Notes: generated by a model from the letters alone, not told the origin. A DNA stretch of 64,000 nt from Caulobacteraceae bacterium (GCA_965277345.1 CBDICI010000002.1:208055-272054); one strand, 5' to 3'. Counted from the stretch's first letter, positions 1,855 to 18,736 are shown. Numbers and translations are program-made.

Positions 1855-4800
1855 ATGCTCGCCGTCGTCAAGCTCGCCCTGACACGCCCGTACACCTTCA
1901 TCGTGCTGGCCATACTGATCGTGATCATGGGGCCGCTGGCGGCGCTGAAGACGCCCACCGACATCTTCCCGGACATCCGCATCCCGGTGATCGCGGTGGT
2001 GTGGACCTATCGCGGGCTGCCGCCGGACGACATGGCCGGGCGGGTGATCTATTACTACGAACGCCAGCTCTCCACCGCCGTGAATGACATCGACCATGTG
2101 GAGAGCCAGTCGCTGAACGGCATCGGCATCGTGAAGATCTTCTTCCGGCCCGGCGTCGATATCCGCACCGCCACCGCCCAGGTCACCTCCGTCTCGCAGA
2201 CGGTGCTGAAGCAGATGCCGCCCGGCATCACCCCGCCGCTGATCCTTAACTACAACGCCTCCACCGTGCCGATCCTGCAGCTGGCCCTGTCGAGTCCGGT
2301 GCTGAGCGAGCAGAAGATCTTCGACCTCGGCCAGAACTTCATCCGCCCGGCCCTGGCCACGGTGCAGGGCACCGCCATCCCGTCGCCCTATGGCGGCAAG
2401 GAGCGGCAGATCCAGATCGACCTCGATCCCCAGGCGCTGGCGGCCAAGGGGCTATCGGCGGAGGACGTCTCCACCGCCATCGCCGCGCAGAACCAGATCG
2501 TGCCGGCCGGCTCCACCAAGATCGGCAGCTATGAATACAACATCAAGCTCAACGACAGCCCCGCGGCGGTGGAGTCGCTGAACGACCTGCCGATCAAGAC
2601 CGTCAACGGCGCGACCCTCTATATCCGTGACGTGGCCCACGTGCGCGACGGCTCGCCGCCGCAGCGCAATGTGGTGCGGGTGGACGGGCGGCGGGCGGTC
2701 TTGATGACGGTGCTGAAGTCGGGCTCAGCCTCGACCCTGTCCATCGTCGATGGGGTGAAGGCGCTGCTGCCGCGGCTGAAGGAGACGCTGCCACCATCAC
2801 TGCAGGTCAAGCCGATCGGCGACCAGTCGCTGTTCGTGAAGGCGGCGGTGGAGGGCGTGGTGCGCGAAGGGATCATCGCCGCCGCCCTGACCGCGGCGAT
2901 GATCCTGATCTTCCTCGGCAGCTGGCGTTCCACCGTCATCATCGCCCTGTCGATCCCGCTGGCCATCCTGGCCTCGCTGGCGGCGCTATCGGCGATGGGG
3001 CAGACGCTCAACATCATGACGCTGGGCGGGCTGGCGCTGGCGGTGGGCATCCTGGTGGACGACGCCACGGTGACCATCGAGAACATCAACTACCACCTGG
3101 AAAACGGCAAGAAGGTGCGCGACGCCATCCTGGATGGGGCGCAGCAGATCGTCGGGCCGGCCTTCGTCTCCCTGCTCTGCATCTGCATCGCCTTCGTGCC
3201 GATGTTCTTCCTCGGCGGCATCGCCGGTTTTCTGTTCGCGCCGATGGCCGAGGCGGTGGTGTTCGCCATGATCGCGTCGTTCGTGCTGTCGCGGACGCTG
3301 GTGCCGACGCTGGCCAACTACCTGCTGCGCGACCACGCCGCCGCGCACACGGTGGAGGCCATGACCACCCACGACGCGGAGGCCGGTCGCCGCCATCCCT
3401 CGCGCAACCCGCTGGTGCGGTTCCAGCACGGATTCGAGCAGCGCTTCGAGGCGGTCCGCGCCGGATATCGGGGTCTGCTGATCCTCGCCATCGCTAGGCG
3501 TCCGGTGTTTCTGATCGGCTTCATGGTGGTGGTGCTCGCCTCCTTCGCCCTGGCGCCGTTCCTTGGACGCAACTTCTTCCCGACGGTGGACGCCGGCACG
3601 ATCAGCCTGCACGTCCGCGCCCCGGTCGGCACCCGGATCGAGGAGACCGCCGCGCTGTTCGATCATATCGAGACGCGCATCCGCCAGGTGGTCCCGCCGA
3701 GCGAACTCGACTCCATCGTCGACAATATCGGCCTGCCGGTTTCCGGCACCAACCGCGCCTATTCCAATACCGGCGGGGTGGGTCCCCAGGACGGCGACAT
3801 CACCGTCACCCTGACCAAGGCCCACCATCCCACCGCGGCTTACGTGAAGGCGCTTCGGGCGACCCTGCCCGCTTCCTTCCCGGGATCGACCTTCTCGTTC
3901 CTGCCCGCCGACATCATCAGCCAGATCCTCAACTTCGGCGCGCCCGCCCCCATCGACGTGCAGGTGGCGGGACCCAGCGCCTCACAGAACGAAGCCTTCG
4001 CCGAAGCCCTGCTGCACAAGCTGCGCGCCATTCCGGGCATCGCCGACGTGCGCCTGCAGCAGTCCAGCCACTATCCCGAGTTCGCGGTGGACGTGGATCG
4101 CACCCGGGCCGACCAGCTCGGCGTCACCGAGCGCAACGTCACCAACAGCCTGGCCGCCAACCTGGCCGGCACCTTCCAGACCGCCCCGGCCTTCTGGCTG
4201 AACCCGAGGAACGGCGTGTCCTACCCCATCGTGGCGCAGACGCCGCAGTATCGGCTCGACACCCTGTCATCGATGGAGAACATCCCGGTCACCGGCAGTC
4301 GTCCGGGCGAGTCGCAGGTGCTGGGCGGCCTCTCCACCTTCCGTCGCCAGACGTCGGACGCGGTGGTGAGCCACTACGCCATCCAGCCGGCCTTCGACAT
4401 CTACGCCACCACCCAGGGCCGCGACCTCGGCGCGGTGGCCGGCGATATCCAGAGGGTGCTGAAGGCCGCCGAGAAGGATCGCCCGGCGGGCGCTACCGTC
4501 GCCCTGCGCGGCCAGGTGGAGACGATGAACTCGGCCTTTTCGGGCCTGTTCTTCGGCCTCGCCGGCGCCATCGTGCTGATCTACCTGCTGATCGTGGTCA
4601 ATTTCCAGAGCTGGACCGACCCGTTCGTCATCATCACCGCCCTGCCCGCCGCCCTGGCCGGCATCGTCTGGATGCTGTTCGCCACCGGCACGACCCTCAG
4701 CGTGCCCGCCCTTACCGGCGCCATCATGTGCATGGGTGTAGCCACGGCGAACAGCGTGCTGGTGGTGAGCTTCGCGCGCGAGCAACTGACCCTCACCGGC

Positions 4801-5079
4801 GATGCGACCCGCGCCGCCATCGAGGCCGGCTTCACGCGCTTTCGTCCGGTGCTGATGACCGCCCTGGCCATGATCATCGGCATGGCGCCCATGGCGCTCG
4901 GTCTCGGCGAGGGCGGCGAGCAGAATGCGCCGCTGGGCCGCGCCGTGATCGGCGGGCTTGTGTTCGCCACCATCGCCACCCTGTTCTTCGTGCCGGCCGT
5001 GTTCAGCCTGGCGCACCGCAAGAGCGCCGCCCCCGCGGCCGACCCATCCCGCTCCGGAGAGCCCGCCTATGGCTATTGA
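1855..5079 (+). CDS. RND efflux transporter permease subunit (AcrB/HAE family)
   Basis: 1074-aa ORF with typical RND N-terminus (LTRPYTFIVLAILIVIMG), two large periplasmic loops and 12 TM segments. Confidence 0.95.
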   Translation: MLAVVKLALTRPYTFIVLAILIVIMGPLAALKTPTDIFPDIRIPVIAVVWTYRGLPPDDMAGRVIYYYERQLSTAVNDIDHVESQSLNGIGIVKIFFRPGVDIRTATAQVTSVSQTVLKQMPPGITPPLILNYNASTVPILQLALSSPVLSEQKIFDLGQNFIRPALATVQGTAIPSPYGGKERQIQIDLDPQALAAKGLSAEDVSTAIAAQNQIVPAGSTKIGSYEYNIKLNDSPAAVESLNDLPIKTVNGATLYIRDVAHVRDGSPPQRNVVRVDGRRAVLMTVLKSGSASTLSIVDGVKALLPRLKETLPPSLQVKPIGDQSLFVKAAVEGVVREGIIAAALTAAMILIFLGSWRSTVIIALSIPLAILASLAALSAMGQTLNIMTLGGLALAVGILVDDATVTIENINYHLENGKKVRDAILDGAQQIVGPAFVSLLCICIAFVPMFFLGGIAGFLFAPMAEAVVFAMIASFVLSRTLVPTLANYLLRDHAAAHTVEAMTTHDAEAGRRHPSRNPLVRFQHGFEQRFEAVRAGYRGLLILAIARRPVFLIGFMVVVLASFALAPFLGRNFFPTVDAGTISLHVRAPVGTRIEETAALFDHIETRIRQVVPPSELDSIVDNIGLPVSGTNRAYSNTGGVGPQDGDITVTLTKAHHPTAAYVKALRATLPASFPGSTFSFLPADIISQILNFGAPAPIDVQVAGPSASQNEAFAEALLHKLRAIPGIADVRLQQSSHYPEFAVDVDRTRADQLGVTERNVTNSLAANLAGTFQTAPAFWLNPRNGVSYPIVAQTPQYRLDTLSSMENIPVTGSRPGESQVLGGLSTFRRQTSDAVVSHYAIQPAFDIYATTQGRDLGAVAGDIQRVLKAAEKDRPAGATVALRGQVETMNSAFSGLFFGLAGAIVLIYLLIVVNFQSWTDPFVIITALPAALAGIVWMLFATGTTLSVPALTGAIMCMGVATANSVLVVSFAREQLTLTGDATRAAIEAGFTRFRPVLMTALAMIIGMAPMALGLGEGGEQNAPLGRAVIGGLVFATIATLFFVPAVFSLAHRKSAAPAADPSRSGEPAYGY

Positions 5080-6256
5080 GACGCGCCCGCCGACCGGTGC
5101 GCCCGCGCCCGGTCACCTGAAATGGGTCGGCCTCGGCGCCCTTGGCGTCGCCGCCGGGGTGGTGGTCGCCGGCGTCCTCGGCCGCGCCCATGCGGAGCGC
5201 GACGTGAAGGGCTGGACGGAGGCGCAGGCCATCCCCACCGTCGCCTATGTGACCCCCACCGGCGCCGCGGCCGGCGGGGCGCTGTCGCTGCCGGGCACGC
5301 TGCAGGCGCTGAACGAGGCGCAGCTGTTCGCCCGCGTGCCGGGCTATGTGCACGCCTGGTACAAGGACATCGGCGCGCACGTGAAGAAGGGCGAGGCGCT
5401 GGCGCTGATCGATACGCCCGAGCTCGACCAGCAGATCGCCCAGGCCCGCGCCGATCTCGCCAACGCCACCGCCGCCCGCGCCCTGTCGCAGACCACCGCC
5501 GCGCGCTGGAGCCAGCTCCTGGCCGCTGACGCCGTATCCAAACAGGAAGCCGAGGAGAAGACCGGGGACCTGGCGGCCAAGACCGCGCTGGTCGCGGCCT
5601 CCCGCGCCAATCTGGATCGCCTGCTGGCGCAGAAGAACTTCGCCCGTATCACCGCGCCCTTCGATGGGGTGGTGACGGGCCGCACCGCCGAGATCGGGGC
5701 CCTGGCCAATGCCGGAACAGGGGGGGCGCCCCTGTTCACCGTCGCGGATATCAGCCGCATCCGCGCCTATGTCCGCGTGCCGCAGTCCTATTCGGCGGCG
5801 ATCCGGCCCGGCCTGCAGGTGCAGCTCACCCTGCCGGAATATCCGGGGCGCAGCTTCCCGGCGGCGCTCGACTCCACCTCCAACGCCATCAGCCAGCAGT
5901 CGGGCACCCTGCTGGTGGAGCTGGTCGCCGCCAATCCGGGCGGGGCGCTCAAGCCCGGCGCCTTCGCCCAGGCCAGCTTCGCCCTGCCCAAGGGGGCCAG
6001 CGCCGCACAGGGCCTGCCGGCCAGCACCCTGATCTTCCGCGCCAAAGGCCTGCAGGTGGCGACCGTGGGGGCCAACAACCACATCCACATGAAGCCGGTC
6101 GTCATCGCCGAGGATCTCGGCCCCACGGTGGAGATCGCCTCCGCCCTGGCGCCCACCGACCGTGTGGTGGACAATCCGCCGGACTCGCTGGCCGAAGGCG
6201 ATCTCGTCCGCATCGCCGGCGCGCAGCAGACGGGAGCCCAGCGTGCGGCGCGCTAG
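5069..6256 (+). CDS. RND efflux periplasmic adaptor (MFP/HlyD family)
   Basis: ATG 5069 overlaps the RND stop by 11 nt. The protein has an N-terminal anchor, a coiled-coil region ([16 protein letters not shown]) and a barrel-sandwich motif ([10 protein letters not shown]). Confidence 0.9.
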
Positions 6257-7670
6257 TCCGCCTGCACCGTTGCTGGGGGCGGCGCTTCTCGGCGCGCTGC
6301 TGGCCAGTTGCTCCTTCGCGCCGCCCTACCAGGTTCCGCCGACGCCGACGGTGACGGCGTTCAAGGAGGCCGGCCCCTGGACCCTCGCCCAGCCCGCCGA
6401 CGCCATGCCGAAGGGACCGTGGTGGACCGTGTTCGACGATCCGGCGCTCAGCGACCTTGAGGCGCGGCTGGATCGGGCCAACCCCACGCTGGCGGAAGCC
6501 TTGTCCCGCTATGACCAGGCCCGCGCCTATTATGGCGAGGCGCAATCGGTGCTGCTGCCCCGGATCGGCGCGGGCGGCTACGTCACCGATAACCGGCAAT
6601 CGGATCACCGCCCCCTGCGCGGCTCCAACCAGCCCGACGACTACGCCGCCAATTCGCTTGCCTTGCAGATCGACTACGAGCTCGACCTGTGGGGTCGGGT
6701 GCGCAACCTCGTGGCCGCCGGCAAGGCCGAGGTCGAGGCCACCCGGTCCGACACCGAGAACGTCCGCCTGAGCCTGGAGGCCCAGTTGGCCGACGCCTAT
6801 CTGCGGCTGCGGGGCCTGGACGTGCAGGCGGGCCTGCTTCGCGACGCCGTCGGCGCCTATCAGCGGGCGTTGACCCTGACCGAGGCCCGGCACAGCGGCG
6901 GCGCGTCCTCCGAGATCGACGTGGAGCGCGCCAGCACCCAGCTCGACAGCGCCCGCGCCCAGGTGTCCGACATCGCCGCCTCCCGTGCACTCTATGAGCA
7001 CGCCATCGCCAGCCTGATCGGTGAGCCCGCCTCGACCTTCGGCCTCGCCCCCGCCGCCACCGAGCCGCGCCTGCCGCACATTCCGCTCGGCGTGCCGTCG
7101 GACCTGTTGCAGCGGCGGCCGGACATCGCCGCCGCCGAGCGCCGCGTGGCCGCCGCCAATGCGCAGATCGGCGTGGCCCGCGCTGCCTTCTTCCCCTCGA
7201 TCACGCTCGACGGCGTGCGCGGCTTTCAGAACACCGGCGCCAACGACTTCTTCGGCAGCGGCAACAGTTTCTGGATGCTGGGCCCCAACCTGGCGCTGAC
7301 CCTGTTCGACGGGGGCCGCCGCCGCGCCGTGGTCGCCGCAGCAAACGCCGCGCGCGAGATCGCCGCCGACGCCTATCGCGCCCGCGTGCTGTCCGCCTTC
7401 CAGGACGTGGAGGACAATCTTGCGCTCCTCAACCATCTGGCGGTGGAGGGAGACGACCAGGCGCGGGCCGTCGCCTCCGCCGGCCGCACCGAGCAGCTGG
7501 CGCTGGCGCGCTATCGGGCCGGCGCGGTCACCTATCTGGAGGTGGTCACCGCCCAGACCGCCGCGCTGCAGGCGCGCCGCGCCGCCGCCGACGTGGGCGA
7601 GCGACGCCTGTCCGCCAGCGTCCGCCTGATCCGCGCCCTGGGCGGCGGCTGGAACGGCTCGGCGGCATAG
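6243..7670 (+). CDS. Efflux outer-membrane factor lipoprotein (NodT/OprM family)
   Basis: GTG 6243 overlaps the adaptor stop by 14 nt. The protein has a lipobox LLAS-C and a duplicated OMF repeat architecture. Confidence 0.9.
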
Positions 7671-7875: not shown

Positions 7876-8484
7876 TCACGACACTCCGCCGCCGTAACGC
7901 CAAATCCAGCCGGCGAAGAGCAGGCCCATGGCCGCCAGCCAGCTCCCCGCGACGCGGACGGCGACGATCGGCCAAAATCGCCGCACTCGAAGCGTCAGCG
8001 AGGCCGCAAGCGCGAAGACCACAAACGCGGACGCCGCCATGCCGACCACGCTTAGCAGTCCACCGGTGTCTCCGGCGCCGTCTGCACAGCCGCGCAGGCC
8101 GCCGGCAAGGACGGCGATCATTGCACACACGGCAGCGGCGGTGGAGGCGTTGCTCGCCAGCAGGGCGCCGATGCCGATCATCAACGCCGCCGTCAGCGGT
8201 GCATAGGCGACGTCCAGCCGCCCGGGTCCGATCGCCGCGCCGGCCACCCCGCCCAAAATCCACGCCGCCGTCAGCGCCATCAACGACCAGCGCGCATGAC
8301 GGGGACCCTGCAAGCCCGCGTACAAGGCGAGTGCAGCCGTCGGCAAGCTGTCCTCGGCGCTGAAGGCGAAATGAACGATGCCGTCATAGACCGGGCCCAT
8401 GCCCGTGACGACCAGATGGGCTTGTGCGGCGTGCGGCGCGAGAGCGAGGCCAGCGGCGAGCAGAAGGGGGAGTCGCCGCCTCAT
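7876..8484 (-). CDS. Divergent HupE/UreJ-like membrane protein (signature histidines missing)
   Basis: ATG 8484 forms an ATGA overlap with the upstream gene stop. The protein has a signal peptide (LALAPHAAQA-H) and about 5 further TM segments. Topology matches HupE, but the HPxxGxDH and FHGxAHG motifs are absent. Confidence 0.6.
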   Translation of the reverse strand: MRRRLPLLLAAGLALAPHAAQAHLVVTGMGPVYDGIVHFAFSAEDSLPTAALALYAGLQGPRHARWSLMALTAAWILGGVAGAAIGPGRLDVAYAPLTAALMIGIGALLASNASTAAAVCAMIAVLAGGLRGCADGAGDTGGLLSVVGMAASAFVVFALAASLTLRVRRFWPIVAVRVAGSWLAAMGLLFAGWIWRYGGGVS

Positions 8485-9086
8485 GCGAAGGCCCGCAGCA
8501 AAAAGTAGGCGCCGCCGCAGGCGATGGCGCCGCCGACCCCTTGCAAAGCGATCCGTCCGGCCCGCCAACGATGGATCAGGCCGATGGCGATGCCGGTGGC
8601 GTGCAGCAGGCCCGTCGCCAGCACAAAGCCCGCGCTATAGAGGAGCGCGTTCTGGCGAGGCGGCAGCTCCGCCCCGTGGGCGTAACCGTGGAACAGGCCG
8701 AATAGGCCGACCATGGTCATGGCGAGCGGCAAGGCGGGACGCCACGCGAAGGCGATGGCGCCGCCGAGGCAGAGGCCCGAAAGCGCGATGGCGATCTCGC
8801 TGCCGGGCAAGGGCAAGCCGATCAGCCCGATGAACCCGCCCACGGCCATGATGAGCGGGAAGGTGAGCGGCAGGAGCCATAGGGCCGGCCGCCCCAGTTG
8901 AGCGCCCCAGATGCCCACCGCCACCATGGCGATGATGTGATCGAGCCCGGAAATCGGGTGCCTAAAGCCGCTGACGAAGCCTATCGCCTCGCCGCCCACA
9001 ATGTGCGCCAGGGCGATCTGCGGCGCGCCCGCCGCCAGCACCACGGCGCCCACCGTCAGGCCAGGCTTCTGCCCGGAGCGCGTCAT
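8481..9086 (-). CDS. HupE/UreJ family metal (Ni/Co-type) permease
   Basis: 201 aa with a signal peptide ending ALA-H and the signature motifs HPISGLDH and FHGYAHG. There are ATGA overlaps at both ends. Confidence 0.8.
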   Translation of the reverse strand: MTRSGQKPGLTVGAVVLAAGAPQIALAHIVGGEAIGFVSGFRHPISGLDHIIAMVAVGIWGAQLGRPALWLLPLTFPLIMAVGGFIGLIGLPLPGSEIAIALSGLCLGGAIAFAWRPALPLAMTMVGLFGLFHGYAHGAELPPRQNALLYSAGFVLATGLLHATGIAIGLIHRWRAGRIALQGVGGAIACGGAYFLLRAFA

Positions 9087-10093
9087 CCACCGGCCCCGAA
9101 AACGGCGAGGCCGTATTGGAACGTCCAGGCGGCGCCGAGAATGCCGATGAGATAGGTCGGCGCCATCGCGAAGGGCCGCGGCAAGGTCAGGGCCATCAGG
9201 CGGAATGCGCGATCCAGAGCGAGGATGAGCGCGATGAACGCCAATTGGCCGATCTCCACGCCGAGGTTGAACACGATGAGCGCGCCGGCCAGCGCGCCGG
9301 TTTCCAGTCCAAGCGCGCGCAGTCCGCCGGCGAAGCCCAGCCCATGCAGCAGGCCGAAGACGAAGGCGACCGTCCACGGGTGTCGGATGGTGAGGCTCGT
9401 CTCGCCTCGGCGAGCGCGGACGATCTCCGGCGCGAGGAAAAGGATGGAAAGCGCGATCAGTGTGTTGAGCAGCGATATCGGCAAGCTGATCAGCCCGAAG
9501 GTCGCTGCGGCGAGGGTGAGCGAGTGTGCGGCCGTGAAGGCGGTGACGGTCTTGACCAGCGCCCACCGATCCTTGACCAGCAACATCAGCCCGAGCACGA
9601 ACAGAAGGTGATCTGGGCCGGTCAGGATATGCTGGACGCCGAGGCGCAGGAACGCGATCGCCCCCATGCCGACGCCGCTTTCGAGGGTAATCTCGAGCGA
9701 CGGCGCCTCGGGACGCAACACGCCGTCCATGGCTTGGTCGTGCCGCAATCGTATCCGGACGAACACGTCGGTGATGGTGTCCGCCAGGCCTTCCACGCTC
9801 ACCGTACGCCCGGCCAGTGGGGCGGGGCTGGTGGTGTCGATGCTCCAGGTGCGGATCAGATAACCCGGCGCTGCGAATTGGTCCGCCGGCGCGCGCTCCA
9901 GCCAACCGTTGGACAGGTGGGGCGCAAGATGGATGGCGACGTCGCCGAGTGTGGGTTGCTTCCAGACGATCCGATAGGTGGTCGCCCCCGTCTGATCGAT
10001 CTCGAGATAGGCGGGCCGCACCTCGTGCGCCGCGGCCGCGCCGACGAAGAGCAAGGCGATCAGCGAAAGGAAAATCAGCAACGTCCCCTTCAT
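9083..10093 (-). CDS. HupE/UreJ_2-type membrane protein with N-terminal periplasmic domain
   Basis: ATG 10093 (MKGTLLIFLSL signal) overlaps the PPIase stop. A soluble N-domain of about 130 aa is followed by a TM core with HILTGPDH and LLHGLGFAG motifs. Confidence 0.7.
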   Translation of the reverse strand: MKGTLLIFLSLIALLFVGAAAAHEVRPAYLEIDQTGATTYRIVWKQPTLGDVAIHLAPHLSNGWLERAPADQFAAPGYLIRTWSIDTTSPAPLAGRTVSVEGLADTITDVFVRIRLRHDQAMDGVLRPEAPSLEITLESGVGMGAIAFLRLGVQHILTGPDHLLFVLGLMLLVKDRWALVKTVTAFTAAHSLTLAAATFGLISLPISLLNTLIALSILFLAPEIVRARRGETSLTIRHPWTVAFVFGLLHGLGFAGGLRALGLETGALAGALIVFNLGVEIGQLAFIALILALDRAFRLMALTLPRPFAMAPTYLIGILGAAWTFQYGLAVFGAGG

Positions 10094-11061
10094 CGCGCCC
10101 GATCCTTGCGGATGACGGTGAAGGTCTTGGCCAATCTGTCGAAGGCGGCCTGATTGGCGGCGTCCTGGTGGGCCTGGATATAGTCGGCGCGGACGGCGTC
10201 GCGCACATCCGACAGCGCGGGATGCGACGCAGCCTGGCGGGCGTCCACATAGAGAAGATGCCAGCCATAGGCCGAGCGATAGGGCCCGCCCCAATGGCCG
10301 GGCGGCGCCGTCAAGACCGCGGTCGCAAAGGCTGTATGTCCGAACAGCCGATAGATCTGTTCCGGCTCGTAGGCGGAGAAATCATAGAGGTCGGGGAACG
10401 GGTCGCCCTTGTCGGGCGCCCGGGTCACGGTTGGCGAAAGCGTCTTCAGGACGGCGTCGGCCCGCGCCTTGGCCGGTGCATCCCCCTTGTCGCTGGAAAA
10501 ATAGATGTGGCTGAAGGTGGTCCGGGGCAGCGTGGCGTAGCGTTCTGCATGACTGGTGTAGAAAGCTGCGAGTTGCGGCTCGCTAGGTTCGGCCGGAGGG
10601 TTCAGATCCTGCAGCAGGAACTGTTCCTTTTGGACGACGCGGCGGTGCACGATCTCGTCGCCGACGTCCAGCTTCAGCGCCAGGCCTTGCCGGAACAGGA
10701 TCTCGTCGCGCACGTCCTGGTCGATCAGCCCCTGGAGGGTGTGCGGGTCCGGGCGCTCTCCGAACTGCAGCGCATAGTCGTTCGCCAGTTGAGCCACATG
10801 GGCGGGGGTAATGACGATGCGGTGGACGTCGGCATTGCGTTGATAAATCCGCCCTACCGCGAACAGCACGAACCCGATGATGATGAAGTGGACCAGGGGC
10901 TCTGCAGCAAGCTTGCGAAGCCGTCCCGGCCAGCGTTGGATTGGCGAGCCCTTACGATGTGTGACGGCTGAACGTCCGACGACGTCGGGGTCGGGGTTGG
11001 CGTTCCCCCCATCCGCGTCGGTCGGGCCTGGATCGCTTTCAGACATGCCTTCAAACTGCAT
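10090..11061 (-). CDS. Membrane-anchored parvulin-type peptidyl-prolyl isomerase
   Basis: The protein has an N-terminal anchor (HFIIIGFVLFAVG) and a C-terminal rotamase-like region (GPYRSAYGWHLLYV). The alternative start is ATG 11046. Confidence 0.7.
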   Translation of the reverse strand: MQFEGMSESDPGPTDADGGNANPDPDVVGRSAVTHRKGSPIQRWPGRLRKLAAEPLVHFIIIGFVLFAVGRIYQRNADVHRIVITPAHVAQLANDYALQFGERPDPHTLQGLIDQDVRDEILFRQGLALKLDVGDEIVHRRVVQKEQFLLQDLNPPAEPSEPQLAAFYTSHAERYATLPRTTFSHIYFSSDKGDAPAKARADAVLKTLSPTVTRAPDKGDPFPDLYDFSAYEPEQIYRLFGHTAFATAVLTAPPGHWGGPYRSAYGWHLLYVDARQAASHPALSDVRDAVRADYIQAHQDAANQAAFDRLAKTFTVIRKDRAR

Positions 11062-11233
11062 GGAAGGGTTTCAGAAAGCCACCGACGGCGGCGAGGACGA
11101 TATGGTCCGCCGCCGTCTCGGCGGACAAGGCGCCGAGTTCTTGGCCCACATCACCAAGCCCATGATGGAGAGTGATAGAGCCCGGGGCGATGTTCCGCGC
11201 GACCTTCCGGAGCTTCAACTCCATCCCTACCAT
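11051..11233 (-). CDS. Candidate small ORF (57-60 aa), unknown function
   Basis: An AGGAAG RBS-like sequence precedes ATG 11233, and a second ATG lies at 11224. Third-position codon bias looks coding by eye. The stop overlaps the PPIase start by 11 nt. I recognise no family. Confidence 0.3.
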   Translation of the reverse strand: MVGMELKLRKVARNIAPGSITLHHGLGDVGQELGALSAETAADHIVLAAVGGFLKPFHAV

Positions 11234-11294
11234 GCCCTTCCTCGGCGCCTGTTGGCCGATCGAAGCGGCGATTCGGGCGGCCTACATCGAAAAC

Positions 11295-13268
11295 TCAGCC
11301 CTTGGCCCGCTCTGACTTCGGCGGCGTGAACCAGATCGGGGATGACCAGGCGCGCTCCTGGATGGTCGCCGGCGCCCCGGCCGGGATCGGCAGGGCGTTG
11401 GCGATCGCCAGATGCGTGGTCCAACGGGCGGTCGGGATTTCCAGGGCGCGTGCATAATAGACTGCTGGCGCGTGGGGGTCGAACTGCGGGTCTTCCCAGA
11501 CGGTCGCCAAGGTCGGGGCGCCGATCGAATTGGTATAGTTTCCGGTCTTGAGATCAACGGTGTTCCCGACCGGAGGCGCCTTGCCAGTCCGCCGATCCAC
11601 GGTCCGACCGTTCGATACGGCGACATCGAAGACCTTCTCCTGATAGGTCTTGCCGACCAGCCAGACCTTGATGATCTGAATGCGGTCGAGGTTCGCCCCG
11701 TCGGGGTCCTTGGTCGCCTGCAGGATGAATCGGGGCGCGGACCGCTCACCGGTGGCTGGCAAGTCGGAGCCCATCGGCACTCCCTGCGCATAGGCCTGCC
11801 GCACCCAGCCGGCCTTTTGCAGCAGGGATGGGGCGAAGGACCAGCCCCCGAACATCCTGAGGCGGATGCGCGTGCCGGTGGTGGCGAAGGTTTCCTTGCG
11901 CTTGAGCGCGGCAAAGATCGACGGACGATTGTTCTGTTCTGCCCAGACGCCGGTGATGCTTGCCCCAGAAAACTGGAGGGGATTGTTTTCGCGCTGCCCG
12001 TTGGGACGCACTGCGACTTCGGCGCGATCCATTCCCAGCGCGGCGCGCGCGGCGGCGCCACGCGGCAGCATGGTCTTCGGGTCGAGCCCGCTGATCCGAC
12101 CGGCATAGGCGTTTTCGTCACTGGCGCTGAGCCCGTTATGGATGTCGGAAGCGCCCACCACGCCCATCTTGAAGGGGTTGGCGCCGACCTGAGATTGGAT
12201 GATCAGGCCGCGCCCGTAGGCTTCTCGAACATAAGAGCCATGCTGCACCGGGTGGTTCTCGCCGGCATAGACCCGGTCGACGATCTCGAAATTGGCGAAC
12301 TCGTCGTTGGGCGAGAGTTCGGGGGTGGTGTCGGACGAGCCCTTGGTCTGGGCAATCTCCACCAAAGGCTCGTTCAGCGCGCGCTGCTGGGCGTAGGCCT
12401 CATCGATCGGCCGGCCGTCCGACATATTCCAGTCGAAGTCGCGACCATCGCTGAGGTTGGAATTGTGCGGGATGGCCAGCACATCGATGCCCTGTTTGCG
12501 AACGGCGGTGAGGTACTTCCAGAGGTCTTCGGGCTTGTTCGAGTCCACGGCCGTGAAGGGCGCGGGTGCGTGATCCGCATCGAAGATCACGTTGCGGTGC
12601 ATATGAATCCCCTTCTCCGGGGAGGAGGTCCACTCATACGCCACAAAGGTGGTGAATTTTCCGGGCTGATAGTTGTCGTTGGCGGCCTTCATCTCCAGCG
12701 CCCAGCCGTTGGCGGTCTGGGCGGCGGCTTTCAGATCGGGCGCGGCTGCGTTGTTTTGGCCCGTCACCGCCGCGCCGGCGATATTGAAGGCCTTGGCGCC
12801 TCCGCTGCTGAGTTGCTTGCCGATGTCGCTTTTGGAGAAGGCGCTGTCGGGGTCGTCCAGCTGTTTCATGGCGCCGAGATATTCGGAGTGGTCGGTGACG
12901 GCGGTGAAATCCAGCGGCCAGGCCCGCCTGGCCGGCACCATGCCGTCGACCTGAAGTTGCTGCTCCTTGGCGAGTTGGATGGCTGGGACCATCACCGTCT
13001 CTCCGCGCGCGAACTTGTAGGCCTGATCCGGTGTGACCTTGGTGCCGAACGCCCAAGCATCGAATGACATGACGGTGTGGAGATGGAGTTCGCCGAAGAA
13101 AGCGCGGCGGTTTTCGGGCGCGGCCTGATTTGCATCCGGCATCGTCATCGCCGTGGCGCGGGAAATCATGGTCGGGGCGCCGCGCTCCGGCGCGAAGGCG
13201 ATCGTGGCCCCGGCGCCGGCGACGACTGCCGCGATCCCACCGGTGATCCAAAGCGTGCGATGTCCCAT
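11295..13268 (-). CDS. DUF3604 domain protein (PHP-like metal-dependent hydrolase fold), anchored/secreted
   Basis: A strong GAGGAGG RBS precedes ATG 13268. The protein has an N-terminal hydrophobic anchor and an FFGELHLHTVMSFDA HxH motif typical of DUF3604/PHP. Confidence 0.72.
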   Translation of the reverse strand: MGHRTLWITGGIAAVVAGAGATIAFAPERGAPTMISRATAMTMPDANQAAPENRRAFFGELHLHTVMSFDAWAFGTKVTPDQAYKFARGETVMVPAIQLAKEQQLQVDGMVPARRAWPLDFTAVTDHSEYLGAMKQLDDPDSAFSKSDIGKQLSSGGAKAFNIAGAAVTGQNNAAAPDLKAAAQTANGWALEMKAANDNYQPGKFTTFVAYEWTSSPEKGIHMHRNVIFDADHAPAPFTAVDSNKPEDLWKYLTAVRKQGIDVLAIPHNSNLSDGRDFDWNMSDGRPIDEAYAQQRALNEPLVEIAQTKGSSDTTPELSPNDEFANFEIVDRVYAGENHPVQHGSYVREAYGRGLIIQSQVGANPFKMGVVGASDIHNGLSASDENAYAGRISGLDPKTMLPRGAAARAALGMDRAEVAVRPNGQRENNPLQFSGASITGVWAEQNNRPSIFAALKRKETFATTGTRIRLRMFGGWSFAPSLLQKAGWVRQAYAQGVPMGSDLPATGERSAPRFILQATKDPDGANLDRIQIIKVWLVGKTYQEKVFDVAVSNGRTVDRRTGKAPPVGNTVDLKTGNYTNSIGAPTLATVWEDPQFDPHAPAVYYARALEIPTARWTTHLAIANALPIPAGAPATIQERAWSSPIWFTPPKSERAKG

Positions 13269-13286
13269 GTGAACCTCCTCTTATCC

Positions 13287-13901
13287 TTATAATATCCCGG
13301 ACGCTGCCGCAGGGCCGCCCGTATTGCAGGAAACCCTTCGGATTTCCGGCAATGGAACGCGGTCCCGATGATCTGCGACGCCGGTATTGGGCTGATACAG
13401 GCGAAGCAGGAGCTGCATCAGACCATCGCGCCCGCCGAAGGTCAGCCGGTTTTGCCCCTCCCCCGAGGGCGCCAGCGCTATGGTCCAGCGGCCGTTGGCA
13501 TCGATGGCGGTGTCCGACATCGACCACGAATAGCGGTTGGCCGGATTGTCAATATAGAAGCCGTCGCGATAGAGGGTCAGGCTCCACCAGCGGGTCGGCA
13601 GCGGACCACCGATCACAGTATAGGTGCAGGCGCGCCGAAGCCGCTCGCCCGCGGAGTCGTGGCTGGCGGTGAAATAGACCACCTCGGAGGGCGGCAGGCC
13701 CCAGATGCCGTGGAGGGCGACACGGGCGCGCGTATACGGGTTCTGGTGCGCTTGGCCGATGGCGGCGCTGGTGGACCAGGCGCCGACCTTCTGATCTTCC
13801 TTGGCGTTGGGATTGGTCACGGCCCAGAAGGTGGCGGCGCCGGCGAGCGCACCCAGCACGCCCCCCGTGAGCAGCGACGCGGCGGTCCAGACCCGCTTCA
13901 A
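13287..13901 (-). CDS. DUF1214 domain protein with N-terminal anchor
   Basis: The TTG start overlaps the DUF1254 stop (TTGA) and has a GAAGGAGG RBS 7 nt upstream. DUF1214-like signature: RWWSLTLYRDGFYIDNPANRYS. Confidence 0.72.
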   Translation of the reverse strand: MKRVWTAASLLTGGVLGALAGAATFWAVTNPNAKEDQKVGAWSTSAAIGQAHQNPYTRARVALHGIWGLPPSEVVYFTASHDSAGERLRRACTYTVIGGPLPTRWWSLTLYRDGFYIDNPANRYSWSMSDTAIDANGRWTIALAPSGEGQNRLTFGGRDGLMQLLLRLYQPNTGVADHRDRVPLPEIRRVSCNTGGPAAASGIL

Positions 13902-14473
13902 GACCGAGCCTCCTTCGCCGGACGCATGACGAGGCCCCGACTCTCCGCTTCCAGCGCCGTGACATAGGCCTTGTCCGTGCGGTCGCGTATGAAGCAGCGC
14001 AACAGCACCACGCCTTCGGTCGATGGCAGGATGGCCTCATCCTTGACCGGTTCAGCGACGTGCTGCTGCGCGGTTCCAAGACCGATCGAGATCCGCCCAT
14101 CGGGGGAGTCCCGGTCCGAACGGATGAGGACGGTGTCGGTATTCCGGGCGAATACAGAGGCCGACCAATAGGTGCAGCTATGCGGCCGAACCCCTTCGAC
14201 TATCAAAGGGCCTTTGCGAAGGTCCAGATAGGCGCGCGTGCTGAGCGTGTCCGGGTTGGCCAGCGGCACGCTGGTTGCGCCGGCGCGCGGCGGCTTGGCG
14301 TAGATGAGCGCATTCATCCGCCCGCCGCGCCGCAGCCCCTCGGCGATCTGATGATCGGTCGACCAGTCCGGGCTGAGAAAGAGCACGCCCAGATGCACAA
14401 CGATCGCCATGACGACGAACGCGACGCCGCCGACGATCACGCTGTGCCAAAGCTGAGATTTGCGCTGACCCAT
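13898..14473 (-). CDS. DUF1254 domain protein with N-terminal anchor
   Basis: ATG 14473 gives MGQRKSQLW followed by a TM helix. DUF1254-like signature: NPDTLSTRAYLDLRKGPLIVEG. Confidence 0.68.
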   Translation of the reverse strand: MGQRKSQLWHSVIVGGVAFVVMAIVVHLGVLFLSPDWSTDHQIAEGLRRGGRMNALIYAKPPRAGATSVPLANPDTLSTRAYLDLRKGPLIVEGVRPHSCTYWSASVFARNTDTVLIRSDRDSPDGRISIGLGTAQQHVAEPVKDEAILPSTEGVVLLRCFIRDRTDKAYVTALEAESRGLVMRPAKEARS

Positions 14474-14668
14474 ATCAGATCGTTGAAAACCGACCGATCG
14501 GCTGGCTGGATCGCCGGGACGAATTTTCAACCTCCCGCCCAAGCGACGAGCGCGCCGTCATGTCTGAACCGTGCCGATCATTCACAATTTCTAACCGATC
14601 ATCCGAAAAACTCAAGTGCGCCTGCGACAGAAGGAGCCCTCAACGGGTGAGCACAAACTTTAACGCAT

Positions 14669-14692
14669 TGATTATAAATATATTATTATAGG
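14669..14692. promoter_or_regulatory. A/T-only imperfect palindrome in the divergent control region (candidate operator or promoter element)
   Basis: TGATTATAAATATATTATTATAGG is the most AT-rich stretch I saw in the window. It lies between the divergent DUF1254 operon and the TonB receptor gene. Confidence 0.3.
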
Positions 14693-14879
14693 TTAGACCG
14701 ATGCTTCTTTGCGACTGTTTGAATAAGTTGAGATGTCCTTCAACATTCCGCCAGCCCAATTTATGCCTTGCCGGGTGGAATTTTCTGCATTCATATGCCA
14801 CCAAAATGGAGGATTGGTCCCCTTGCCGGGGATCAAAAACGAACGAGGGAAATGCACGGCAAGTGCAAAAGGGGGAAAT

Positions 14880-17489
14880 ATGACGGGTCAAACCGTGAGC
14901 GGCCGTTGCGGCATCGAGGCATCAGCGAGGGTCGCCAAGTCGCGCACGCTGAGAGCTAAGATATTGGCGAGCGGCGCCGTTTATCTGGCCTTGGGTCTTT
15001 GGGCGCAGGCAGCGTCGGCGCAGCACGCCAGTCGCGAGCCCTCCGCATCCGGCGCGGCGCCCGCGAGCGACACTGCAGCCCAGGCCAGCGCTGCGCAGGC
15101 CGAGGGCGAAACGGCCGAAATCGTGGTGACCGCCACCAAGCGGAATGAGCGTCTGCGCGACGTGCCGGAAGCCATTACAGCCGTTTCGGGCGCATCGCTG
15201 GCCGCGGTCGGTCCCATCGCCAACACGTCCGACATCGTCAGCAGCGTGCCCGGCGCACGGTTCAATAACCTCGGCAATCCGCTACTGAGCGAAATCTCGA
15301 TCCGCGGTTCGGGAACCGAGCGCGCGACCGGCGCCGACTCCTCGGTGGGTCTGTATAGCGACGGCATCTACATCGGGTTCAGCGGTAATGGCGGACGTAA
15401 CTTCGCGCCGGTCGATTCGTTCGACGTCGACCACGTGGAGGTGTTGGAAGGCCCGCAAGGGGCGCTCTATGGCCGGGACGCCGAATACGGGGTGATCAAC
15501 ATCATCTCCCAACGCCACGCCTTCAAGAACTCCGCCTCCGTCGATGAGGTCTACAATTTCGATACGCAGCAGAATATCGTCTCGGCCATCGGCAACTACG
15601 CCATCAATGATAACTGGGCTGTCAGGCTGGGCGCCCAGGATTACATCCAGTCCAAGGGATTTGAATACAATCCGACGCTTAACCGTTATTACGACGTGAC
15701 GAGCGGCTATATCGTCCGCGGGCAGGTGCGCTACTCAGCCAACAACTTCGATGTGGATTTGCTGGCTCAGCGGCAGGAGCTTCGCGTGCCGTCGTTCTAT
15801 TCGGTGGACCAGGTCCAGCCCGCCAATCCGGCAGTCGGCTATCCGGGGTTCTCCACCTATCCGCTGGGCTTCTTCCAAAATCTGCGTTCCGTCCCGCACA
15901 ACGGGACCGACTATGCCAAGGAAGACATCGACAACGTCTCGCTGTTCATCAATTACGACTTCGGCTGGTCCAAGCTGAGTTCGACGTCGAGCTGGCGTCG
16001 CATCAACACGACCCAGATGATCGATGCGGACTATATCGATCTGGCCACCGAGATCGCCGTTCAGCAACTCGGCGAGAAGGGTGCTTACCCCTTCGTTCAG
16101 CAGAACAATATCGGCCAAACCGACACCTATTTCGAGGATATACACTTGGCTGGTGCGCCGATGTTTCATAACCGACTGAGCTGGCTCGGCGGTCTGGAAC
16201 TGCTGGATCAGCCGCAGAACTCGCGCCAGACGGTGACGCAGAACCCCTGCGCCACCAACCAGAATCCCAACCCCGTGATCGGACAGGGCGCCTGTACCGG
16301 CACGCCGACGGCGCCGACCTGCACGCCCCTGTTGGGCTCGACCTGCCCGACCCCCGTCAGCCCCTATGGTTCGGACTCGCCCACCGCCAGTAAATACTAT
16401 TCCTGGGCGCCCTATGTATCGCTGACCTACAAGATCGGCTGGGGCTTCACCATCGCGGGGGACCTGCGATACTCGCACGATCACAAGACGGCGACCAATT
16501 CGGTGTCTCAACTCTACACCAACCTCTCATACCCTTATCTGACGGGCGGCACGATCCCGGCCGCCAGTTACAGACTGGACTCGGGCAACACCAATTATGC
16601 GGTGACGCTGAGCTACAAGGTTCCAGACTCCGACACGATATTCTACGGCAAGGTGGGGACGGGCTATCGGGTCGGTGGGTTCAATTTCGGCCACACCCCG
16701 CCGCTGTTGGCGCCGCCCTATCCAAAGGGCATCAGCGCCGCGCCCAACTATGCGCCGGTCGTGCCGTCCTATAGCGACGAGACCAGCACCAGCTTCGAGG
16801 TCGGTGTGAAGGGCACGATCGCCCCGCGCACCTATCTGACCCTAGCGGCCTATTACCAGGATACGCTCAACGCCCTCGCCGGCGTGCAGGATGGCTGTAC
16901 GGCCACCAATGCCTGTGAAGCCGGCAATACCAACTACACCGTGAACGGCGGAACGGTGCATGGCAAAGGGTTGGAAGCGCAGTTCACAACGTCTCTCAAT
17001 CTGCTCGGCGGCGTGCTCAACGTGCAGGTCAACGGGTCGACCCAGACGGCTAAATACGTGAGCAACCCCACAGTCGGGGTCAATGGGCAGAAGTTGAACG
17101 GTCTGCCGCTGATCGGCACCTCGATCGCGGAGAACCCGCATTACCTCCTCGACGCGACGCTGAATTACGTTCATCCGATCACCAACGATATCCTGGGCTT
17201 CGCCAATTTGCGGATGCACGATCAGTGGGGCGGCATCCAGGATCCGCAAACCAGTGTGCTGGTGTTTCATATGGACAACTACCAAGACTACGATCTTCGC
17301 GCCGGCGTCGATTACAAGGCACTCGAGTTCGCTGTCATTGTCCGCAATTTGACCGACGAGTTCCACCGCACGGCTCAGTTCCAACAGGCGGGCGTCAACA
17401 CCATCACCGGCGCCACCGTGCCGGTAGTGACGCAGATCCGGCCCAATCTTCCGCGCTCGATCTCACTGGAAGTGAAATACAAGTGGTAA
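14880..17489 (+). CDS. TonB-dependent outer-membrane receptor
   Basis: An AAAGGGGG RBS precedes ATG 14880. The protein has a signal peptide (AQAASA-Q), a TonB-box/plug region (EIVVTATKR, VEVLEGPQGALYG) and a C-terminal aromatic residue (EVKYKW). Confidence 0.9.
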   Translation: MTGQTVSGRCGIEASARVAKSRTLRAKILASGAVYLALGLWAQAASAQHASREPSASGAAPASDTAAQASAAQAEGETAEIVVTATKRNERLRDVPEAITAVSGASLAAVGPIANTSDIVSSVPGARFNNLGNPLLSEISIRGSGTERATGADSSVGLYSDGIYIGFSGNGGRNFAPVDSFDVDHVEVLEGPQGALYGRDAEYGVINIISQRHAFKNSASVDEVYNFDTQQNIVSAIGNYAINDNWAVRLGAQDYIQSKGFEYNPTLNRYYDVTSGYIVRGQVRYSANNFDVDLLAQRQELRVPSFYSVDQVQPANPAVGYPGFSTYPLGFFQNLRSVPHNGTDYAKEDIDNVSLFINYDFGWSKLSSTSSWRRINTTQMIDADYIDLATEIAVQQLGEKGAYPFVQQNNIGQTDTYFEDIHLAGAPMFHNRLSWLGGLELLDQPQNSRQTVTQNPCATNQNPNPVIGQGACTGTPTAPTCTPLLGSTCPTPVSPYGSDSPTASKYYSWAPYVSLTYKIGWGFTIAGDLRYSHDHKTATNSVSQLYTNLSYPYLTGGTIPAASYRLDSGNTNYAVTLSYKVPDSDTIFYGKVGTGYRVGGFNFGHTPPLLAPPYPKGISAAPNYAPVVPSYSDETSTSFEVGVKGTIAPRTYLTLAAYYQDTLNALAGVQDGCTATNACEAGNTNYTVNGGTVHGKGLEAQFTTSLNLLGGVLNVQVNGSTQTAKYVSNPTVGVNGQKLNGLPLIGTSIAENPHYLLDATLNYVHPITNDILGFANLRMHDQWGGIQDPQTSVLVFHMDNYQDYDLRAGVDYKALEFAVIVRNLTDEFHRTAQFQQAGVNTITGATVPVVTQIRPNLPRSISLEVKYKW

Positions 17490-17496
17490 GGCGATC

Positions 17497-17922
17497 ATGG
17501 ATGATCTGCAGCGATCGCTGATCGAACGGGCGTGTGGTCGGCTAGTGACGCAGTACTGTCACTATATCGACCACGGTCAGGCCTCGCGTGTGGCGAGGTT
17601 GTTCTCGGTCGATGGAGTCTGGTGCTCTGCCGAGCAGACCATGAGCGGGGTCGCAGAAATCGAGCGTGGCTTCATGCGGCGTGAGACTAATGTCGGTCGG
17701 TTTTCGCGCCACGTGTGCAACAACCTGCTGATCGACGTCGAGGATGCCGATCATGCGACCGGCGTGGTGTATTTGACGCTCTATCGGCACGATGGCGAGG
17801 TGGGGCGGCGGAGCGCCCCGACCGGGCCGCCGACTTTTATCGGCGAATACCGCGACCGGTTTGTCCACACCGTGGACGGGTGGCGGTTCCAGCGCCGCGA
17901 TGTATCGGCCGACTTCGTATGA
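17497..17922 (+). CDS. SnoaL-like / NTF2-fold protein
   Basis: 141 aa, starting 7 nt after the receptor stop. The pattern is SnoaL_4-like (YCHYIDHG, GVVYLTLY, DGWRF). Confidence 0.7.
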   Translation: MDDLQRSLIERACGRLVTQYCHYIDHGQASRVARLFSVDGVWCSAEQTMSGVAEIERGFMRRETNVGRFSRHVCNNLLIDVEDADHATGVVYLTLYRHDGEVGRRSAPTGPPTFIGEYRDRFVHTVDGWRFQRRDVSADFV

Positions 17923-17932
17923 GCGGGTCATC

Positions 17933-18736
17933 GTGACGTCATCACGCGTGTTCAAGGAGCGCCACCTCGGCGCGGTCTTCATCGTCACCGGCGGCGGAAG
18001 CGGCATCGGCGCCGCGACCGCCGAGCGGCTGGCGGCGGAGGGCGCCAAGGTGGTCGTCGCCGACGTGCGGGGCCCCTCCGCCGAGGCAATCGCGCAGACC
18101 ATCAACGCCGCCGGGGGCGAAGCGATCGGGCTGTCCTGCGATGTCTCTTGTGAGGACGACGTTCGCGCCATGGTCCGCCATGCCAGTGAACGGTTCGGCC
18201 CGGTATCGGGTCTATTCGCCAACGCGGGCACGGCCGGGCGCGGCTGGATCCACGAGACCGAACTCGCCGATTGGCAGCGCGTACTATCCGTCAACCTGAC
18301 CGGCCCATTTCTGTGCGCCAAACACCTGCTGCCGGCGATGGTCGAGCAGGGGCGGGGCGTGATCGTCACTACCGGATCAATCGCCTCGGTCGTGATCGGC
18401 GGCGCCGGTTCGGCCGCCAGTTATGCGTCCAGCAAGGGTGGCCTGCTTCAACTCACCAAGCAGATCGCAGTGGACTACGGCGCCCAGGGCATTCGGGCCG
18501 TCTGTGTCTGTCCCGGGGCGGTGAAGACGCAGATGGGGGTGCACGTAAGCCAAGACCGTCAGGCCGACCAGACCCAGGCGACAACATCGCTGCCGCGCCC
18601 ATCGCCTTGGACGCCGCTGTCGCGAGCCGCCGCTCCCGAAGAAATTGCGTCGGTGGTCTCGTTCCTGCTGTCCGACGAAGCGTCCTTCATCACGGGAAGC
18701 GCGGTATTCGTCGATGGCGGCCTGCTCGCCATCTGA
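17933..18736 (+). CDS. SDR family oxidoreductase
   Basis: GTG start 10 nt after the previous stop. Motifs: TGGGSGIG Rossmann motif, NAG, and the YASSK catalytic motif. Confidence 0.9.
   Translation: MTSSRVFKERHLGAVFIVTGGGSGIGAATAERLAAEGAKVVVADVRGPSAEAIAQTINAAGGEAIGLSCDVSCEDDVRAMVRHASERFGPVSGLFANAGTAGRGWIHETELADWQRVLSVNLTGPFLCAKHLLPAMVEQGRGVIVTTGSIASVVIGGAGSAASYASSKGGLLQLTKQIAVDYGAQGIRAVCVCPGAVKTQMGVHVSQDRQADQTQATTSLPRPSPWTPLSRAAAPEEIASVVSFLLSDEASFITGSAVFVDGGLLAI

Follow-up and report, generated by a model that had tools for sequence, protein, structure and literature searches.

A string of seven co-directional, tightly packed genes occupies positions 7876-14473, on the minus strand, of a 64,000-nucleotide (nt) stretch of DNA from a Caulobacteraceae bacterium (GCA_965277345.1 CBDICI010000002.1:208055-272054). 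The whole stretch is called the window below. Comparison across genomes divides the string into two evolutionary units. Unit A (13287-14473) is a split DUF1254/DUF1214 pair. Unit B (7876-13268) contains a DUF3604 protein, a parvulin-type peptidyl-prolyl isomerase (PPIase), a HupE_UreJ_2 protein, a canonical HupE/UreJ permease (HupE), and a divergent HupE-like membrane protein. Unit B is a widely conserved module, which we read as an enzyme with its accessories. DUF3604 would be an exported metallohydrolase acting on an organic ester supplied through a TonB-dependent receptor, and the PPIase and HupE-type proteins would be its dedicated folding and metal accessories. This reading is favoured tentatively, at somewhat less than an even chance.

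The module was traced from two sides. One genome per species was scanned with a DUF3604 alignment, and relatives of the window proteins were located in 80 loci. The PPIase and HupE_UreJ_2 genes adjoin DUF3604 in 27-29 of the 55 loci that have at least 4 kb on both sides. In the reverse test, metagenomes were seeded with HupE_UreJ_2. Of 59 loci with upstream sequence, 58 have the PPIase gene immediately ahead of HupE_UreJ_2. DUF3604 is found in 35 of the 43 loci whose flanks are long enough; in four of the other eight the upstream flank is missing, so that the informative figure is about 35 of 39. HupE or HupE-like genes follow HupE_UreJ_2 downstream in 28 of 49 loci. Among the DUF3604-seeded loci, HupE and HupE-like always occur together (12/12 loci). 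In its canonical order the module consists of one to three DUF3604 copies, the PPIase, HupE_UreJ_2, and optionally HupE and HupE-like, exactly as in the window. An earlier note on this DNA had drawn attention to the gene combination, and the core order recurs under both seedings. The module loci of the DUF3604 seeding belong to four phyla and come from Alpha-, Beta- and Gammaproteobacteria, Acidobacteriota, Bacteroidota, and Verrucomicrobiota. Isolates of Pseudomonas, Novosphingobium, and Rhizobium are among the carriers (L011, L024, L025, and L028).

The linkage is asymmetric. The accessory pair of PPIase and HupE_UreJ_2 is nearly always found with DUF3604, while DUF3604 is found with the pair about half the time. 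DUF3604 genes are often in tandem, up to five copies in a Flavobacterium metagenome-assembled genome (MAG; locus L047), and one pair accompanies one to three, and up to five, tandem copies. Because the accessories are nearly always with DUF3604 and DUF3604 is often alone or in tandem, an accessory-to-enzyme relationship is favoured; it is further supported because one accessory set serves several DUF3604 copies. The same asymmetry fits accessories serving an enzyme better than the metal-import pathway that the earlier note had put forward. Arrays of three to five DUF3604 paralogues with a single PPIase-HupE_UreJ_2 pair occur in L047, L006, L054, and L105.

The module is also found rearranged. 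In the close relatives L001 and L082, the PPIase-HupE genes stand ahead of DUF3604, and L084 contains every window family in another arrangement. Since the association is kept despite reshuffling, it argues for a functional link. One could instead regard the HupE-type proteins and PPIase as a general metal-uptake/chaperone unit. DUF3604 would then simply be often nearby, or would store or buffer metal in the periplasm. DUF3604 is absent from four well-flanked HupE_UreJ_2/PPIase loci (L085, L108, L150, and L157), and other HupE_UreJ_2 proteins neighbour, for example, DUF4198 and PfkB. Against this view stands the adjacency of roughly 90%, in a fixed order and across phyla, and the conserved PHP-type ligand set of DUF3604 points to catalysis rather than storage. 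We regard the general unit as very unlikely.

The family calls were made with Pfam hidden Markov models (HMMs) against curated gathering cut-offs, which six of the seven products pass. All seven genes are on the minus strand. DUF3604 (11295-13268; 657 amino acids, aa), the first gene of unit B, matches PF12228 over model positions 2-591 of 591 (7e-199; 662.5 bits, cut-off 20.4). A gap of 233 nt (11062-11294) separates it from the PPIase gene (10090-11061; 323 aa, exact start uncertain; Rotamase_2, 3.4e-13; 50.9 bits, cut-off 27). The HupE_UreJ_2 protein (9083-10093; 336 aa) matches PF13795 at residues 148-296 (8e-45; 152.7 bits, cut-off 24.5), and HupE (8481-9086; 201 aa) matches PF04955 (HupE_UreJ; 4.3e-53; 179.9 bits, cut-off 23). 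The last gene of the unit encodes the HupE-like protein (7876-8484; 202 aa), which has no Pfam match even at E ≤ 10. In unit A, the small, membrane-anchored DUF1254 protein (13898-14473; 191 aa; PF06863, 4.6e-11; 43.5 bits, cut-off 22.2) comes first and is followed by the equally small and membrane-anchored DUF1214 protein (13287-13901; 204 aa, TTG start; PF06742, 1e-18; 68.3 bits, cut-off 25). The families named in the earlier note were thus recovered for six products, the third "HupE" being only a remote paralogue. NCBIfam gave no name to any of the seven products, apart from one sub-threshold NifM match.

Most junctions in the string are close. A TTGA at 13898-13901 places the TTG start of DUF1214 on the stop of DUF1254, and 4-nt ATGA overlaps are read directly in the sequence at 10090-10093, 9083-9086, and 8481-8484. 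DUF1214 and DUF3604 are spaced by 18 nt, and a GAGGAGG lies 7 nt ahead of the DUF3604 ATG. All seven products are polytopic or carry an N-terminal hydrophobic segment. The four overlaps, the strong ribosome-binding site of DUF3604, and the envelope location of every product were all claimed previously, and each holds. The count of eight consecutive genes does not; the candidate eighth, a 60-aa open reading frame (ORF) within the 233-nt gap (11051-11233), was rejected as not conserved, since tblastn found no counterpart in 81 related loci.

The 233-nt gap appears structured. Its RNA has a minimum free energy of -120.5 kcal/mol, compared with -104.3 ± 5 kcal/mol for shuffles (z = -3.2). Just ahead of the PPIase ATG, a hairpin rich in GC is predicted at about 11083-11118, with a weak U tract after it. 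Rfam has no match in the gap. The structure may be an attenuator that sets the enzyme-to-accessory ratio, a processing element, or functionless. Because of this gap, we can only infer co-transcription of DUF3604 with the four downstream genes. The seven genes could alternatively be two or three independent operons (DUF1254/DUF1214; DUF3604; PPIase and the three HupE-type genes) that are merely co-directional. The structured gap, the autonomy of the DUF1254/DUF1214 pair elsewhere, and the PPIase-HupE genes preceding DUF3604 in L001 and L082 are consistent with such a division. It is nevertheless unlikely, given the short DUF1214-DUF3604 spacing with its strong ribosome-binding site and the failure to call any promoter-like or terminator-like site in the gaps between the string genes. 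In addition, the functional linkage within unit B is independent of transcript structure.

DUF3604 contains an N-terminal signal or anchor at residues 8-26. The motif FFGELHLHT, to which the earlier note had drawn attention, is located at residues 57-65. In an alignment of 42 DUF3604 sequences with 34-60% identity, H62, H64, D70, H127, E212, H224, H268, and D375 show no variation, and H377 is kept in at least 90% of the sequences. These residues keep the order HxH, D/H, H, E, H, H, DxH. PHP-type trinuclear sites, such as those of YcdX and histidinol phosphatase, are built from nine ligands, which the DUF3604 residues match in order and chemistry. Alignment of the DUF3604 profile with YcdX alone by hhalign gave 20%, with the first four ligands aligned. 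With a small PHP alignment, the probability rose to 66% over 233 columns, and eight ligands were aligned. H62/H64/D70/H127/H224/H268/D375/H377 correspond to H7/H9/H15/H40/H101/H131/D192/H194 of YcdX, which we take to be its metal ligands. The YcdX query sequence is identical to that of PDB 1M65. The PHP profile is shallow; a protein search with YcdX gave only homologues at least 79% identical.

The AlphaFold2 model of full-length DUF3604 is usable (predicted local distance difference test score, pLDDT, of 71). In the model, H62/H64 and H268 are predicted at or just past strand ends, and E212 and H224 inside strands. An immunoglobulin (Ig)-like β-sandwich is predicted at the C terminus, after the catalytic part. 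Together, the motif and profile evidence supports DUF3604 as a putative PHP-like trinuclear metallohydrolase, short of proof.

Several observations weigh against this assignment and the accessory reading built on it. The hhalign probability is only 66%. No PHP relative of DUF3604 was found in HMM searches of PDB sequences and Pfam; one PHP_C match, at E 0.22, occurs among the 42 members. The PDB sequence search returned no solved relative. Foldseek with the model against the PDB retrieved no PHP structures, but only weak matches to the C-terminal Ig-like sandwich, and the AlphaFold2 model of the catalytic domain alone is poor (pLDDT 37). The earlier proposal of a PHP-type metal site therefore stands on the motif, the nine ligands, and the profile alignment, and not on the HMM and Foldseek searches. 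Characterised HupE/UreJ proteins bring metal into the cytoplasm, not to periplasmic clients, and a trinuclear Zn/Fe/Mn site would have no obvious need for a dedicated periplasmic supply. The 233-nt gap and the uncertain PPIase start weaken the continuity of the operon. Finally, the window itself contains no sulfatase, the enzyme that occupies the position of the module in related loci.

The DUF3604 family comprises at least 7,994 proteins at E <1e-10 and has no assigned function; the searched literature mentions it only in an unrelated connection. Among the matches listed, the best relatives are from Phenylobacterium and Caulobacteraceae MAGs. A lipobox-like motif is present near the N terminus in about 16 of the 42 diverse proteins in the alignment, and many members of the family may be lipoproteins. 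The window protein has an AFA-type signal or anchor, not a lipobox.

The PPIase is predicted to consist of a cytoplasmic tail, one transmembrane segment (residues 51-69), and a SurA/PpiD-like periplasmic part with the parvulin domain. It also shows weak matches to SurA_N_3 and SurA, and the NifM match in NCBIfam is weak as well. By family it is a membrane-anchored periplasmic parvulin-type foldase, with predicted catalysis.

The HupE_UreJ_2 protein is arranged as a signal peptide, a mature N-terminal histidine (H23), a periplasmic domain of about 120 aa, and the PF13795 membrane domain. Cleavage after AAA leaves HEVRPAYLEI as the mature start. H23, E24, R26, P27, H155, D161, H162, H190, and H250 are invariant among 12 diverse homologues, and 57 of 69 homologues from metagenomes carry the HExRP motif. 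A 2025 study named the N-terminal domains of PF13795 proteins "anglerases" and found that they bind Cu2+ and Ni2+ via a mono-histidine brace (PMC12537917). The N-terminal domain of one HupE/UreJ-2 protein binds Cu2+ at 74 nM and Ni2+ at 220 nM through His1, and an intramembrane histidine site, His194/201/229, was modelled in MmAng-2a-HupE/UreJ-2 (PMC12537917). H155, H162, and H190 of the window protein form a triad with the same 7- and 28-residue spacing. Its N-terminal domain matched no PDB chain by profile or by domain sequence, in a PDB copy whose inclusion of the anglerase structure 9GCE was unconfirmed.

The mature chains of HupE and HupE-like both start with histidine after an AxA site, which is ALA in HupE and AQA in HupE-like. 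HupE contains the motifs HPISGLDH and FHGYAHG. HupE-like does not have the histidines of HPxxGxDH and FHGxxHG and carries HFAFSAED and LRGCADG instead. Because the profile of its homologues aligns end to end with the HupE profile (hhalign 98%, E 1.8e-13, 173 columns), the protein encoded at 7876-8484 is, by remote homology only, a divergent HupE paralogue that has lost the canonical histidine motifs. In a nickel transcriptome study of Sphingobium, the context of HupE differs from that in the window.

Unit A has its own evolutionary associations. The DUF1254 protein contains a transmembrane segment at residues 12-30. Its small homologues are 57-65% identical and 182-197 aa long, and each is paired with a small DUF1214 gene (L165-L168). 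The small stand-alone DUF1214 proteins form a family of their own, with 58 homologues of about 190 aa. In all four contexts the small DUF1254 gene directly precedes the small DUF1214 gene, overlapping it or at most 14 nt apart. Their neighbours include a sulfatase with a formylglycine-generating enzyme (FGE), a TonB receptor, TetR, a short-chain dehydrogenase/reductase (SDR), a major facilitator superfamily (MFS) transporter, an alkyl sulfatase, an acyl-CoA ligase, and an enoyl-CoA hydratase. DUF3604 is absent within 8 kb of the pair in the four contexts, apart from a fragment at the end of L167. The eight-gene functional unit suggested in the earlier note accordingly separates here, with the DUF1254/DUF1214 pair on one side and the DUF3604 module on the other.

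A divergent operon on the plus strand begins with a TonB-dependent receptor (14880-17489; 869 aa) that matches the Plug domain (1.3e-17, 64.7 bits). The barrel model has no match at E ≤ 0.01; length and clustering with receptors support its membership. The same receptor cluster adjoins DUF3604 in 13 other loci. In addition, the C-terminal 266 residues are 76% identical to a receptor fragment at the end of L166, a locus that holds a DUF1254/DUF1214 pair. Downstream are genes for a SnoaL_4 protein (17497-17922), an SDR ending at 18736, and an MFS_2 transporter (about 18700-20226), all recognised by Pfam, followed by a conserved protein of 442 aa with no Pfam match (20266-21594) and a double-length TetR regulator of 414 aa with two TetR_N stretches (21710-22954). 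The SDR ORF is longest when read from 17792 and then shares about 130 nt with the SnoaL_4 gene. Its Pfam match starts near 17975, and the true start is probably close to that position.

The receptor operon connects the window with the DUF1254/DUF1214 loci. The 442-aa protein is conserved at 47-64% identity beside the pairs in L166, L167, and L168, with 64% in L166, and on this evidence is an unrecognised member of the DUF1254/DUF1214 gene set. The double-length TetR has a 421-aa counterpart by the pair in L166. Overall, the unknown protein, TetR, MFS_2, and SDR of the window have homologues beside the pairs in L165-L168. Because the receptor-operon genes have these homologues, the window is read as an uptake/catabolic set into which a DUF3604 module is combined. 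The window is syntenic with the DUF1254/DUF1214 set, and the DUF3604 module stands where the relatives have sulfatase and FGE. Since the module holds the position of an enzyme-plus-maturase pair, an ester substrate is suggested, and a new class of ester hydrolases becomes conceivable.

A more general view of the surroundings comes from 222 neighbour ORFs in 47 module loci. TonB receptors are the commonest family (15), in agreement with the receptor link that had been claimed for the string. DUF1214 and DUF1254 account for 10 and 8 ORFs, respectively, and sulfatases for 9, with 2 further alkyl sulfatases. Fused DUF1254-DUF1214 proteins are recurrent neighbours of the module.

These neighbours bear on two further explanations. 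In a sharper form of the enzyme reading, DUF3604 would be a new PHP-type class of periplasmic sulfatase or phosphatase that replaces sulfatase and FGE here, with the PPIase and HupE proteins in an FGE-like maturation role. The syntenic loci L165, L166, and L168 carry sulfatase and FGE at the position of the module, sulfatases and alkyl sulfatases are its commonest enzyme neighbours, and in L105 the DUF3604 copies are interleaved with sulfatases. All of these are observations of gene context, and DUF3604 and sulfatases could just as well co-occur because their activities complement one another as because they are equivalent. The PHP enzymes characterised so far are phosphoesterases, and to our knowledge none is a sulfatase. 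We consider this specific form rather improbable.

The second explanation is metal or metallophore acquisition, in which the TonB receptor would import a chelate, DUF3604 would hydrolyse the chelator, and the metal would enter the cytoplasm via the HupE-type permeases. TonB receptors are frequent neighbours, HupE/UreJ proteins are metal permeases for which the 2025 anglerase model envisages capture and uptake (PMC12537917), and the succession of three permease paralogues suggests a central part for transport. However, DUF3604 often occurs with no permeases, in tandem arrays, and beside sulfatases, acyl-CoA ligases, and enoyl-CoA hydratases. Genes for the synthesis of a metallophore were not seen, no metal-regulator box stands out, and the nearby regulator is a TetR. 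The receptor operon also has its own MFS_2 importer, SDR, and SnoaL-like protein under its own TetR, which points to an organic substrate and makes it less likely that the HupE permeases import a processed substrate, as the earlier note had supposed. Metal acquisition is doubtful on this balance, and the organic-catabolism neighbours together with the lack of metal-regulator boxes support the enzyme-plus-accessory reading.

The divergent intergenic region (14474-14879), the presumed promoter region, is AT-rich in its core, at about 14660-14700. Directly upstream of the DUF1254 start lies a perfect 8-bp inverted repeat, GTTGAAAA...TTTTCAAC (14482-14489 / 14524-14531), with an inner CCGATCGG palindrome. 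The repeat may be an operator, perhaps for TetR, or a 5'-untranslated hairpin. When 14474-14880 was scored against what we take to be the consensus sequences, no Fur, Zur, NikR, Irr, RirA, PhoB, or MerR-type box was better than shuffles, a result that does not favour metal regulation.

The remainder of the window provides the genomic setting. It is GC-rich, about 0.6-0.73. The other genes examined are mainly housekeeping, with an RND efflux operon and a histidine kinase in addition; no urease, hydrogenase, or cobalamin genes were seen among them, as the earlier note had also stated. GC content at third codon positions (GC3) is 0.75-0.82 for genes in 7876-22954 and 25475-29026, and 0.85-0.94 for nearly all other genes of the window. 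One ORF outside the block, 46233-47300, also has a GC3 of 0.79. Genes for tRNA-Gln (23041-23114, minus strand) and tRNA-Pro (23302-23378, plus strand) lie at an end of the low-GC3 block. These two tRNAs are the only matches of Rfam scans of the window, by gathering cut-off and by E-value, and no riboswitch was found. The low-GC3 block may be a horizontally acquired island that holds the module, the receptor operon, and a second TonB receptor. The region 353-7670 contains the histidine kinase followed by the RND operon in the order AcrB, membrane-fusion protein, and outer-membrane factor. In L001 and L084, too, the module is flanked by RND and sensor-kinase genes, an arrangement that points to shared synteny within the lineage.

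The pathway that we envisage for the enzyme-plus-accessory module is as follows. An organic, probably esterified compound would enter through the TonB receptor and be de-esterified in the periplasm by DUF3604, a Sec-exported hydrolase with a putative PHP-type trinuclear metal centre. The membrane-anchored parvulin would be the periplasmic foldase of DUF3604. The HupE-type proteins are expected to expose an N-terminal histidine after signal-peptide cleavage, to which HupE_UreJ_2 would add its intramembrane triad. They could capture and move the divalent metal of the enzyme, either for periplasmic loading or for control of the local supply. MFS_2 would then import the product, and SDR and SnoaL would process it under TetR control. 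Unit A, with the receptor, SnoaL, SDR, MFS_2, and TetR, would form an uptake and catabolism set in which the split DUF1254/DUF1214 pair contributes to substrate handling. What we infer in this scheme is the part of the parvulin in folding and of the HupE-type proteins in metal loading, the direction in which the metal moves, and the nature of metal and substrate.

A bolder formulation, which we hold to be possible but unlikely, is that the module is an unrecognised periplasmic metalloenzyme maturation system. In it, a Sec-exported PHP-type hydrolase would be loaded by a dedicated foldase together with "metal-fishing" permeases of the histidine-brace kind. The hydrolase, possibly a fourth, PHP-based class of sulfate- or phospho-ester hydrolases, would feed TonB-dependent catabolism. 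If the accessory reading is true, it would show how a Sec-exported enzyme receives its metal in the periplasm of Gram-negative bacteria, which has long been a problem of metal selectivity, and could add a new class of ester hydrolases to carbon and sulfur cycling in soil and sea. In any case, the conserved module offers a way to learn what DUF3604 and these HupE-type permeases do. A subfamily of HupE_UreJ_2 is tied almost without exception to DUF3604 and a parvulin, which yields a genetically testable hypothesis for both families. The searchable literature contains no description of the DUF3604-PPIase-HupE module, in line with the earlier statement that the combination is uncharacterised, and none was found in the searched literature of a foldase combined with metal permeases.

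Each component can be compared with a known system. The closest known counterparts of the window HupE_UreJ_2 protein are the anglerase-HupE/UreJ-2 proteins (Ang-1/Ang-2; RbAng-1a, PDB 9GCE; Nat Commun 2025, PMC12537917), which share the signal peptide, the mature N-terminal histidine, the periplasmic domain, PF13795, and the spacing of the intramembrane triad. The periplasmic domain of the anglerases is β-rich. For that of the window protein (about 120 aa, HExRPAYLEI), no PDB chain is detectably similar in sequence. Within HupE_UreJ_2 proteins only the N-terminal "anglerase" domain class has been studied; metal binding was shown only in 2025, and no partner was identified (PMC12537917). Published anglerase neighbourhoods contain unknowns, DUF4198, indigoidine-A-like, and PfkB proteins, and neither DUF3604 nor a PPIase (PMC12537917). 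The window HupE_UreJ_2, in contrast, is locked to both.

HupE is a full PF04955 member, with HPxxGxDH and FHGxxHG, like the Ni/Co permeases of hydrogenase, urease, and B12 clusters such as HupE of Rhizobium leguminosarum. In these clusters, the permease gene stands beside a metalloenzyme gene, as in the window. The window differs in that the partner is an exported, PHP-like protein rather than a cytoplasmically assembled Ni enzyme, and in that three paralogues are in tandem with no hydrogenase, urease, or cobalamin genes.

DUF3604 shares the order and identity of nine ligands, and an HxH after the first strand, with the PHP phosphoesterases (YcdX, histidinol phosphatase, and the PHP domain of PolX). 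It differs from them in being exported, in its size of about 600 aa with large insertions, and in its C-terminal Ig-like domain, and the relation is visible only by profile-profile alignment. The split pair of unit A has the same two domains as the fused DUF1254-DUF1214 proteins, whose function is unassigned (PDB 3U07, 3VB9, and 2P3Y), but in the window the domains are separate, about 190-200 aa each, and each has its own membrane anchor.

The module as a whole resembles enzyme/maturase pairs, namely sulfatase with FGE, NifH with the parvulin NifM, and lipase with the foldase Lif. In these pairs the accessory is always beside its client, and paralogues of the client may lack the accessory, as in the module. 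The partnership in the window differs from them in being read from gene context. NifM is a precedent for a parvulin as a specific maturation factor, and it is NifM that the window PPIase weakly matches. The components of the module are all from known families, and HupE genes are already known to stand next to metalloenzyme genes. The novelty appears to lie in the module, in how widely it is conserved, and in the implication that a parvulin and histidine-brace permeases serve an exported PHP-like enzyme.

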